The position numbers and the translations under genes are program-made. The notes below the pieces were generated by a model. The model worked only from the letters and a program-made list of their open reading frames with translations, had not been told where the DNA came from and searched no databases. Below, piece after piece: positions 2,802 through 3,641 of a DNA stretch of 46,125 bases. This DNA is from Puniceicoccales bacterium. Lineage in GTDB: Bacteria > Verrucomicrobiota > Verrucomicrobiia > Opitutales > JAIRLM01. The number at the start of each line of letters is the position of its first letter. Position 1 is the first letter of the stretch. Location: assembly GCA_031258995.1 (NCBI GenBank), contig JAIRMB010000061.1:1-46125 (forward strand), in the 5' to 3' direction.

Positions 2802-3641
2802 ATGAATACTATTCCAAATCGTCAAACGGGTCCTCGCGTTGTGGAGATCGAGGATCTTGTCGTGGGGCCCGGTGCGCTCGCCATTCCGGGGGGCAAGAGG
2901 CCGCGCGTGGAAGAGCCCGATTTGCCCTCCATGCGGGTCCTTGATCTTGCTTTCCGTACGCAGATTGCAACCTACTTGGTTGATCGGTATCCGGAGCGGG
3001 CGCAGCAGCTTACGAATCGTTACCAGGAGCTGATCGATGGGGGCCTCTCTCCCCAAGAGGCTGTAGCTGCAGCTTTGCAGGAGGCGGAGGAGGTGATCAA
3101 CCCGGAGGTGGAGGCGGAAAAGGTGGAAAGGCTCCGAATGATCCACGATCCGAGGACTCGCGATTCTATAGCGCCTCGGGATACGTTTGAAGTCATAGCA
3201 ATGACGGAGGAGCGGGTTCTGCTGATCCGCGATCCGGCAACCCGCGATTCCATAGTGCCCCGGAATGATCGCGAAAGGGCAGAGATGAAAGCGGCGCTTA
3301 TGGAAGCGAAAGCAGCCAGAATGGAAGCGAAAGCAGCCAGAATGGAAGCGGAAACAGTCAGAATGGAAGCGAAAACCACCGGAATGGCTGCAGAAAGCGA
3401 CAGAATGGCTGCGGAAGCCGCACGGATGGCCGAGGAGACGCAGCGCCTTATTGGGATGGCTGAAAAAAAAACGACGGCGGGGACCGGTCCAGCTGTAAAG
3501 TTTGCTAGCGATTTTTTCGCGAAAGCGTGGGGCGCGATTGTCGCTGCGGCCGTAGCCATGGCGACATTTTTCTGCTTCCTCGGCTGGCGGTTGGGCTTCT
3601 GTTTGCGCTACGGCGAAAAAGCGGAAGGTGTGCAGAAATGA
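2802..3641 (+). CDS. hypothetical tail-anchored heptad-repeat protein, cassette gene B1
   Basis: 279-aa ORF with GGGAG SD, starting 12 nt after the A1 stop. Paralog of 5928..6707. Met/Arg heptads (ARMEAKA) x7 are followed by a single C-terminal TM helix (AWGAIVAAAVAMATFFCFLGWRLGF). The stop overlaps the C1 start (ATGA). Confidence 0.8.
   Translation: MNTIPNRQTGPRVVEIEDLVVGPGALAIPGGKRPRVEEPDLPSMRVLDLAFRTQIATYLVDRYPERAQQLTNRYQELIDGGLSPQEAVAAALQEAEEVINPEVEAEKVERLRMIHDPRTRDSIAPRDTFEVIAMTEERVLLIRDPATRDSIVPRNDRERAEMKAALMEAKAARMEAKAARMEAETVRMEAKTTGMAAESDRMAAEAARMAEETQRLIGMAEKKTTAGTGPAVKFASDFFAKAWGAIVAAAVAMATFFCFLGWRLGFCLRYGEKAEGVQK
3291..3437 (+). repeat. In-frame 21-bp tandem repeat (7 units, e.g. 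GCAGCCAGAATGGAAGCGAAA) inside B1
   Basis: Units at 3291, 3312, 3333, 3354, 3375, 3396 and 3417, counted directly. Units 2 and 3 differ at one base. Confidence 0.9.

Follow-up and report, generated by a model that had tools for sequence, protein, structure and literature searches.

The 46,125-bp window analyzed here is an entire contig (JAIRMB010000061.1) of a Puniceicoccales bacterium metagenome-assembled genome (MAG; locus tags LBF24_), and was found to carry two paralogous genes, B1 (2802..3641, + strand, ATG start, 279 aa) and B2 (5928..6707, + strand, 259 aa), which are 75% identical and lie among injectisome genes. An earlier reading of the letters alone (the sequence-only reading) had proposed that the B proteins could mimic eukaryotic SNAREs. 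Our analysis indicates that B is a membrane-anchored coiled-coil protein, probably a scaffold or tether and neither a SNARE-family protein nor a SNARE-motif mimic, and shows that a second reading frame, which follows a slippery A tract and ends in a CaaX-like box, is conserved among its relatives. In our judgment there is about an even chance that B is a type III-secreted coiled-coil scaffold, which would be paired with the product of the adjoining gene A and held on host membranes via either of two eukaryote-type anchors, a C-terminal transmembrane (TM) helix or a prenylated CaaX end.

Both open reading frames (ORFs) exist and read as they had been quoted, and the layout described for them, a coiled coil followed by a linker, a single C-terminal TM segment and a short tail, was borne out by the sequence, by hydropathy and by an AlphaFold2 model. 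In B1, a disordered region (residues 1–43) is followed by a helical region (44–143), the coil (155–223), the linker (224–241), the TM segment (242–266) and the tail (267–279). The tail of 13 aa agrees with the 11–13 residues read earlier, but the Gly/Pro-rich linker, TTAGTGPAVKFASDFFAK, is 18 aa long and not approximately 25 aa. The TM segment AWGAIVAAAVAMATFFCFLGWRLGF (3525..3599, + strand) contains the family-conserved core FFCF[IL]GW[KR]LG[LF]C; its hydrophobic part, AWGAIVAAAVAMATFFCFLGW(RLGF), gave a Kyte-Doolittle 19-residue mean of 2.11 at residues 242–260, the single peak in the protein, and AWGAIVAAAVAMATFFCFL is the sole strongly hydrophobic stretch of B1. The C-terminal TM segment of B2 is encoded at 6588–6662 (+ strand). 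A crude, position-independent additive Hessa sum for the best 19-mer amounted to −0.63 kcal/mol in B1 and −0.21 kcal/mol in B2. The AlphaFold2 model of B1, which was built from a two-sequence alignment and is of low confidence (mean predicted local distance difference test score, pLDDT, 63.8), showed five short helices over residues 44–143, one long helix at 156–227, a break at Gly-Pro 228–229 and a further helix at 230–278. Along the long helix pLDDT was approximately 80–90 in the first two thirds, then approximately 70, and approximately 50 at the linker, while residues 1–51 scored below 50 and no secondary structure was predicted ahead of residue 44.

Two copies of the motif ERLRxIxDPxTRDSIxPR are encoded in B1 at 3138–3179 and 3222–3263 (+ strand), confirming the internal duplication of I(H/R)DP(R/A)TRDSIxPR reported previously (residues 113–126 and 141–154). 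The heptad region, with Ala at position a and Met at position d, spans 3264..3470 (+ strand) in B1 and 6390–6533 (+ strand) in B2, and its heptads are literal 21-bp tandem repeats in the DNA (B1, 3300–3408, 5.2 copies, 82% matches; B2, 6426–6505, 3.9 copies). The B1 coil comprises 69 aa and that of B2 48 aa (residues 155–202), a difference of exactly three heptads, so B2 had rightly been described as B1 with fewer heptads. The B1 coil owes its additional length to tandem expansion of a 21-bp unit.

Eukaryotic tail-anchored SNAREs (syntaxin/synaptobrevin) resemble B in having a cytosolic heptad helix, a single C-terminal TM segment and a very short tail, bacteria are known to make SNARE-like effectors (PMC2265411, PMC2756591), and the genomic context of B would suit a host-directed protein. 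A mimic in which the heptad domain of about 60 aa beside the tail anchor would pair zipper-like with SNAREs of the host, or with A and C, and so drive or block membrane fusion was nevertheless found to be very improbable. SNAREs are defined by hydrophobic a/d layers with one conserved central Gln or Arg, the zero layer (PMC2265411). In the best register of B1, positions a read R A A A T T S A T A and positions d read A M M M M M M M L K; the core thus has seven Met and one Leu at d and Ala, Thr or Ser at a, the a layer is small or polar throughout, and no Gln or Arg occupies a central core position. Among six family members the coil measures 69, 48, 43, 36, 44 and 39 aa, and therefore no fixed 16-layer SNARE register is present; the heptads of B1 are a recent expansion of repeated DNA, and the long, flexible linker, with its low pLDDT, leaves coil and TM segment uncoupled. 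No match to SNARE (PF05739), Synaptobrevin (PF00957), V-SNARE or IncA, or to any other SNARE-type family, was obtained in Pfam scans at E ≤ 10 with four members of the family (B1, B2, the third paralogue B3, which is P0026, and P0006), and the best Foldseek match of the B model (E = 1.6) was not significant.

Compared with Chlamydia IncA and SNARE-like effectors (PMC2265411, PMC2756591, PMC4961411), which are secreted, membrane-inserted coiled-coil proteins of eukaryote-associated bacteria, B would appear to be a protein of the same general kind, and both IncA-type and B genes are lineage-restricted and fast-evolving. However, the hydrophobic domain of Inc proteins is bilobed and N-terminal, in contrast to the single TM segment at the C-terminus of B, and the Gln/Arg central layer that IncA motifs keep across species (PMC2265411) is missing from B, which thus shows neither the bilobed domain nor the conserved central polar residue of that type. 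The N-terminal sequence PGG(K/R)RPRVEEPD, which had been taken as a possible nuclear localization signal, is indeed present in B, but its basic residues are not conserved among relatives, where TGPIVEES, TGPRVTHP or PGPQIEYP replace it, and the signal was rejected. The proposed targeting to host membranes, unlike the SNARE-type fusion mimicry to which it had been tied, gains support from the location of B in an injectisome operon and from the conserved CaaX-like alternative frame.

An A9 homopolymer, read as codons E-K-K, was found at the linker of B1 (3463..3471, + strand) and of B2 (6526–6534, + strand), and represents a candidate slippage site. The window contains no A9 run apart from these two, and five of the six other loci for which DNA was available have A8–A10 at the same site. 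The slippery homopolymer is thus conserved, being A9 in B1, B2, B3 and L072, A10 in L069 and A8 in L071. After insertion of one A at 3463–3471, the B1 frame runs into TGT AAA GTT TGC TAG (C-K-V-C-stop; 3494..3508, + strand), and the predicted alternative product has 235 aa and ends in ...EKKNDGGDRSSCKVC; after processing it would end in ...EKKNDGGDRSSC, with a farnesyl-Cys methyl ester. A one-nucleotide slip in B2 likewise leads to C-E-V-C-stop (6557–6571, + strand). Directly before the stop codon, the alternative endings read KKNDGGDRSSCKVC in B1, ...SSCEVC in B2, KKNDSSCRVC in B3, KKDCRVS in L069, KKECRVC in L071 and KKKCQVC in L072. Thus, C-x-V-C/S-stop was found in the frame one nucleotide off the TM frame in six of seven loci, each time with Cys at position −4, an aliphatic residue at −2 and a farnesyltransferase-compatible X, a combination that is confined to the alternative frame. 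L072 is assembled in the CaaX-like frame, as an intact 179-aa ORF ending in ...EEAKKKCQVC.

Such endings are rare in the background: when the window and nine related loci were translated in all six frames, C.V[CS]-stop occurred at 3 of 9496 stops, and only one of the window's ORFs of at least 80 aa ends in even a permissive CaaX. Across all loci analyzed, 163 tracts of at least eight A were found, and C-x-V-[CS] followed such a tract only at B genes. Five chance CaaX-like matches behind other tracts of this kind included no C-x-V-[CS]; a CaaX-like match at L003:8203 lies opposite a minus-strand gene and was discarded as spurious. Pairwise comparison of five lineages showed that the 15-nt block is conserved in the rhythm of the alternative frame, with identities at the three codon positions of 1, 1 and 0.4 for Cys, 0.4, 0.4 and 0.4 for a1, 1, 1 and 0.3 for Val, 1, 0.6 and 0.6 for X, and 1, 0.6 and 0.6 for the stop (TAG/TGA), compared to gene-wide values of 0.57, 0.59 and 0.38. 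Read in the TM frame, the same nucleotides give PAGSAR or MPGLLG, depending on which of two subgroups a member belongs to, as a T7/T8 difference shifts the phase; therefore constraint on the TM frame cannot explain the conservation of the block. Resampling of synonymous codons in the TM-frame linker yielded the motif with P = 0.0002–0.018 per sequence. RNA structure was rejected as the cause of the conserved linker nucleotides, since RNAalifold predicted no pairs, and assembly error was rejected as the cause of the frameshifts, since the Logan assemblies and the authors' assemblies, both of which derive from the same reads, are identical there, tract lengths included. Codon periodicity, the phase difference, the resampling and the tract controls together point to selection on a putative alternative-frame product.

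A GC-rich hairpin followed by a run of U5–U7 was detected within the TM-coding DNA of all B members (3539–3566 plus T5 in B1; 6602–6629 in B2; L069–L073). It resembles an intrinsic terminator and sits between the alternative-frame stop and the TM-frame stop, its stems differ in sequence among members, and shuffle z-scores lay between −0.4 and −3.4. The structure could simply result from encoding an Ala-rich stretch followed by Phe-Phe, or it could be an internal attenuator. For a contig of 53% G+C, the window is rich in long A/T homopolymers (33 runs of at least seven A or T, many of them intragenic), which could indicate a slippage-prone genome of the kind seen in reduced symbionts.

Several of these elements have precedents. 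Homopolymers of nine A or T undergo efficient slippage in vivo, and genes of type III and type VI secretion systems exploit it (PMC5009743, PMC4256274): slippage is used by the Shigella type III secretion system (T3SS) genes mxiE, spa33 and mxiA (PMC5009743), while an A11 run in Citrobacter tssM1 leads to two length variants (PMC4256274). Like dnaX, Shigella mxiE/spa and Citrobacter tssM1 (PMC5009743, PMC4256274), the B genes appear, judged by their sequences, to combine a conserved run of at least nine A in a secretion-locus ORF with two C-termini; unlike in those genes, the predicted B variants would differ in the kind of membrane anchor and not in the presence of a domain, and relatives are fixed in different frames. 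The host prenylation signal has parallels in the CaaX effectors Legionella AnkB (CVLC), PelC/PelE and Salmonella GtgE/SifA (PMC2916131, PMC13081727, PMC13423502), since the alternative B end reads C-a-a-X with X = Cys or Ser and lysines ahead and is predicted to be a signal for host farnesyltransferase. AnkB CVLC is farnesylated by host enzymes, which provides a precedent for X = C (PMC2916131), and ankB alleles were shown to exchange CaaX for a KxKxx end by frameshift (PMC5506055). In contrast to these effectors, the CaaX box of B lies outside the annotated frame in five of six loci (all except L072), where it can be reached by nothing but a one-nucleotide slip, and it would alternate with a TM anchor. 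The heptamer A_AAA_AAA is a −1 frameshift site of the dnaX type, and SNAREs themselves occur in TM-anchored and lipid-anchored forms (Ykt6, CaaX). The B family itself is unannotated. Slippage is already known as a source of alternative C-termini, and CaaX effectors are known as well; to our knowledge, a slippage-made CaaX end with a TM anchor as the alternative has not been described.

From these observations a more specific version can be put forward tentatively, as a possibility with somewhat less than an even chance: the B genes may be recoding genes, in which slippage at A9/A10, transcriptional or −1 ribosomal, would produce an injected effector with either a TM tail anchor or a polybasic CaaX box, the choice being coupled to expression of the downstream gene C. 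The hairpin and U run could then terminate transcripts once a ribosome has stopped at the CaaX stop, and different symbiont lineages would have become fixed in different frames.

The B genes were found to be encoded together with injectisome genes. On the + strand the order is coaE, a 159-aa ORF, A1-B1-C1, D (122 aa), sctX, A2-B2-C2, sctY and sctV, so that modules 1 and 2 flank D and sctX immediately upstream of sctY-sctV. The gene sctX (YscX family; 4682..5131, + strand) was recognized by Pfam PF09474 (E = 6.6e-14) and TIGR02502 (E = 3.3e-12), an sctY-like tetratricopeptide repeat (TPR) chaperone gene (7497..8009, + strand) by NF052415 (E = 5.2e-19; 68.7 bits, compared to a cut-off of 70) and by TPR Pfam matches, and sctV, which encodes the FHIPEP export gate (8013..10106, + strand), by PF00771 (E = 4e-229). 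Relatives identified by SctV are nearly all termite-gut MAGs. In nine related species the genes D-sctX-sctY-sctV (L003–L007 and L009–L011) or sctX-sctY-sctV (L008) are uninterrupted, which shows module 2 to be an insertion between sctX and sctY; since the operon begins at D in the relatives, module 1 is lineage-specific too.

The hydrophobicity of the anchor could fit this setting. TM substrates of T3SSs have a 'moderate' hydrophobicity that peaks at −1 kcal/mol and allows escape from the signal recognition particle (PMC6110835), and the crude Hessa sums of the B1 and B2 segments lie near this reported peak. B also resembles the injectisome TM substrates Tir, SseF/SseG and SteD (PMC6110835, PMC9993115) in a TM segment that would, by this crude measure, be moderately hydrophobic, its linkage to a T3SS and the small acidic partner gene that adjoins it. 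It differs in its single TM segment at the extreme C-terminus and in a partner, C, without a class I chaperone fold. Most known TM effectors of T3SSs have two internal TM segments.

The same location would suit a bacterial envelope protein, i.e., a tail-anchored inner-membrane accessory protein or regulator of the injectisome, or a phase-variable envelope component, in which the A tract would be an ON/OFF switch and the CaaX-like frame fortuitous. The B genes stand within the apparatus operon (sctX/Y/V) and not in an effector island, the TM segment is hydrophobic enough for insertion (Kyte-Doolittle 2.11), and homopolymer frameshifts occur in three relatives, where the assembled ORF departs from the TM frame at T8 in L070, at A7 and again near A8/T8 in L071, and at A9 in L072. 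We consider this explanation unlikely, because members of the family occur in none of the sctV loci of 68 related species and in hardly any other genome, and B is therefore not a core part of the apparatus; furthermore, the alternative frame is codon-periodic and its motif is meaningful only in eukaryotes, and more positive charges follow the TM segment than precede it, which is unfavorable for an N-in bacterial tail anchor. A hydrophobic translocator, i.e., an SctB/YopD-like pore component with its chaperone, might also be looked for in a single-TM, coiled-coil protein of approximately 280 aa that is encoded in a T3SS operon beside small acidic proteins. This is the least credible of the explanations considered: translocators are universal in injectisome-bearing relatives, yet B is missing from the 68 sctV loci and, in the exhaustive search, from the proteomes of those relatives, its TM segment follows the coil at the extreme C-terminus instead of being central, no SctB/SctE hidden Markov model (HMM) match was found, and the module is duplicated and rapidly varying. 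The pair B/C was also tried as YopN/TyeA, from its position upstream of a sycN-like gene, and this was rejected because the operon of the relatives starts at D, no HrpJ/TyeA HMM match was found and B has a TM segment.

The B family is small and lineage-restricted, with seven related loci that were all found in MAGs of termite-gut Puniceicoccales (Verrucomicrobiota). An exhaustive profile search of 1.84 billion representatives gave five real relatives besides the paralogue (E = 5e-36 to 4e-7), and the remaining matches covered the repeat region only; every relative with a source name is a Puniceicoccales MAG. One relative, B3 (P0004 = LBF24_01985; the same gene was recovered via P0026), is a third B paralogue of the MAG to which the window belongs. 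Three word-seeded homologue searches, in which repeats swamped the candidate list, returned only the window's own proteins together with P0006 and P0009, and two scans of metagenome collections, with a protein pattern and with a degenerate DNA pattern of the TM motif, gave no relatives. No match to A, B or C was obtained with profile HMMs and tblastn in the 68 sctV loci of other species. The B family is an ORFan without a match in Pfam, NCBIfam, PHROG, PADLOC or PDB; when A, B, C and D, as well as the 159-aa ORF, were scanned against Pfam, NCBIfam, PHROGs and PADLOC, nothing appeared beyond weak noise from low-complexity or coiled-coil sequence, PDB sequence-profile searches with the A, B, C and D families gave nothing meaningful, and no Foldseek match of the B and C models to PDB fell below E = 0.47.

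Within the family, B was always found to be the middle gene of an A-B-C module, and this order and the ATGA coupling are kept at 30–45% protein identity (DNA of L069–L076). The overlap of the B stop with the C start as ATGA was seen in every readable case (B1, B2, L069, L073 and, in the TM frame, L071), and the family HMM placed A beside B in L069, L070 (a remnant), L071, L072 and L073. The conserved elements of B are an N-terminal IPxxxxGP(I/R)(V/I)EE and a second GPxVExP; ERxRxIxDPxTRDSIxPR in one or two copies, which is the most conserved element; the coil of variable length; EKK; FF; and the TM core. Ratios of non-synonymous to synonymous substitution (dN/dS) of 0.41 (B1/B2) and 0.18 (B1/B3), with 0.13 in the N-terminus, show that the B genes are real and constrained. 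Residues 44–75 are hypervariable (dN/dS 1.38; 33 non-synonymous and 9 synonymous substitutions; 2931–3026 compared to 6057–6152), and the flanks of this patch are near-identical, with 41 of the 43 N-terminal residues shared and 93% DNA identity from the A C-terminus to the B N-terminus, which suggests either diversifying selection or a mosaic produced by gene conversion between the two modules. Changes of repeat length between paralogues, the hypervariable patch and the ORFan status suggest that the evolution of B is effector-like.

In some lineages the module is apparently being lost, whereas the window MAG retains three intact B genes. In L070 (10530–10680) B is frameshifted at a T8 run and C is missing, in L071 (3320–3570; the same as L075 and L076) B is frameshifted twice and A is cut to 81 aa, and in L073 (1455–2078) A is split into two ORFs. 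These loci, together with the abundance in the window of homopolymers of at least seven bases, would also fit a decaying, lineage-specific and repeat-rich ORFan module that is now functionless, with the frameshifts as pseudogenization and the duplication neutral. Such decay is improbable as a general explanation, given the intact paralogues under purifying selection in the window MAG, the synteny and ATGA coupling kept at 35–45% protein identity, and the conserved motifs.

Several observations weigh against a type III-secreted B with two alternative anchors. L070 lacks the A tract (A5 only) and the CaaX frame, and its frameshift lies in the T8 run further on; as L070 and L071 look decaying, the homopolymer frameshifts could in part be gene decay. 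With only seven related sequences, common descent inflates the apparent replication. In other MAGs the module lies among housekeeping genes and does not adjoin T3SS genes, and the N-terminus of B is unusually well conserved for a type III secretion signal. In a Foldseek comparison to PDB the C model matched neither the class I chaperone fold nor anything else, D showed no detectable similarity to SycN, and the structural model of B1 is, as stated above, of low confidence.

The first gene of module 1, A1 (2070..2789, + strand, 239 aa), encodes a heptad coil with an Ala/Val core and a conserved C-terminal domain (...LRQxAYDxSxxLWRxF...LLSGMSxEDIDA); the TKQAEA repeats that had been read in A correspond to a 21-bp tandem repeat (2456–2590, + strand, 6.4 copies). 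A2, the first gene of module 2 (5229..5915, + strand, 228 aa), encodes a coil shorter by 21 aa than its A1 counterpart. In module 1 the coils of A and B measure 62 and 69 aa, in module 2 they measure 41 and 48 aa, and in L072 36 and 44 aa. Both coils of module 1 are therefore exactly 21 aa, or three heptads, longer than those of module 2, and these gains arose from different 21-bp units (2456–2590 compared to 5631–5693 in A; 3300–3408 compared to 6426–6505 in B); compared to module 2, the L072 module lacks a further 5 aa in the coil of A and 4 aa in that of B. This covariation, although seen in three modules only, suggests that A and B form a coiled-coil pair co-evolving in length, and it lends a little weight to the bundling with A that had been proposed from the letters.

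The third genes, C1 (3638..4144, + strand, 168 aa from the ATG at 3638) and C2 (6704..7201, + strand, 165 aa), overlap the stops of B1 (in the TM frame) and B2, respectively, as ATGA. C1 is acidic, and C was predicted to be all-helical (pLDDT 75). Terminator-like hairpins were found at 4169–4205 after C1 and at 7258–7280 after C2, and each A-B-C module may thus be a separate transcription unit within the sct operon.

The gene D (4277..4645, + strand, 122 aa) encodes an acidic protein (isoelectric point 5.1), is located directly upstream of sctX in eight relatives (L003–L007, L009–L011) and occupies the position of sycN in Ysc-type loci. It gave no Pfam, NCBIfam or PDB-profile match and could therefore represent a class I chaperone that has diverged strongly. 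Upstream of D in L005 (1884–7882), a 469-aa minus-strand gene resembles a terminase large subunit, judged by its translation, and two long ORFs of 591 and 796 aa, whose products carry hydrophobic segments at the N-terminus, may be further effector candidates or remnants of a prophage. In the two closest relatives of the window, L001 and L002 (SctV 96% and 94% identical), unrelated housekeeping genes precede sctY-sctV, and neither sctX nor D was found within 7 kb upstream of these genes (L001, 1–8100; L002, 1–7480); the sctX/sctY junction, where module 2 is located, is a rearrangement point in the clade. L001 also contains a 557-aa Ala/Thr-rich ORF (2866–4539) of no obvious function. In the window, the 159-aa basic ORF directly upstream of A1 (1453–1932, + strand) has hydrophobic segments at approximately residues 53–77 and 89–105 (Kyte-Doolittle 1.9 and approximately 1.4), 11 residues apart, a layout reminiscent of the bilobed hydrophobic domain of Chlamydia Inc proteins; no homologue was found among the 68 related loci, and no family match was obtained.

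The explanation that we favor starts from the architecture of B, its family and synteny, the operon location, the conserved slippery tract and the conserved alternative frame. B would be a type III substrate that ends on a membrane of the host, a gut protist, with its bulk in the host cytosol. The disordered, conserved N-terminal 43 aa would serve for secretion and chaperone binding, the helical domain with the invariant ERxRxIxDPxTRDSIxPR would be the functional or binding part, and the Ala/Met heptad helix may be a stalk of variable length that pairs with the length-matched coil of A. Anchoring would occur by the C-terminal TM helix, in keeping with the tail-anchor layout of the protein. Alternatively, after a one-nucleotide slip at A9/A10, the conserved frame would be expressed and its KK...C-x-V-C/S end would be prenylated by the host. 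As C starts on the TM-frame stop, it would be co-made with the TM isoform, and it may shield the TM segment before secretion.

Verrucomicrobia of the termite gut that are related to the 'Nucleococcus cluster' reside within gut protists (PMC8204192). If the explanation is true, the B module would be the first concrete candidate effector for the symbioses of these uncultured bacteria, and one open to testing in heterologous cells, with no need to culture the bacterium. The comparison with SNAREs also calls for caution, since heptads and a tail anchor are insufficient grounds for calling a protein SNARE-like. Effector predictions limited to annotated frames would miss signals such as CaaX boxes. 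A single-base slip would switch the effector between a protein anchor and a lipid anchor, and would thereby provide a compact means of routing one scaffold to different host membranes.

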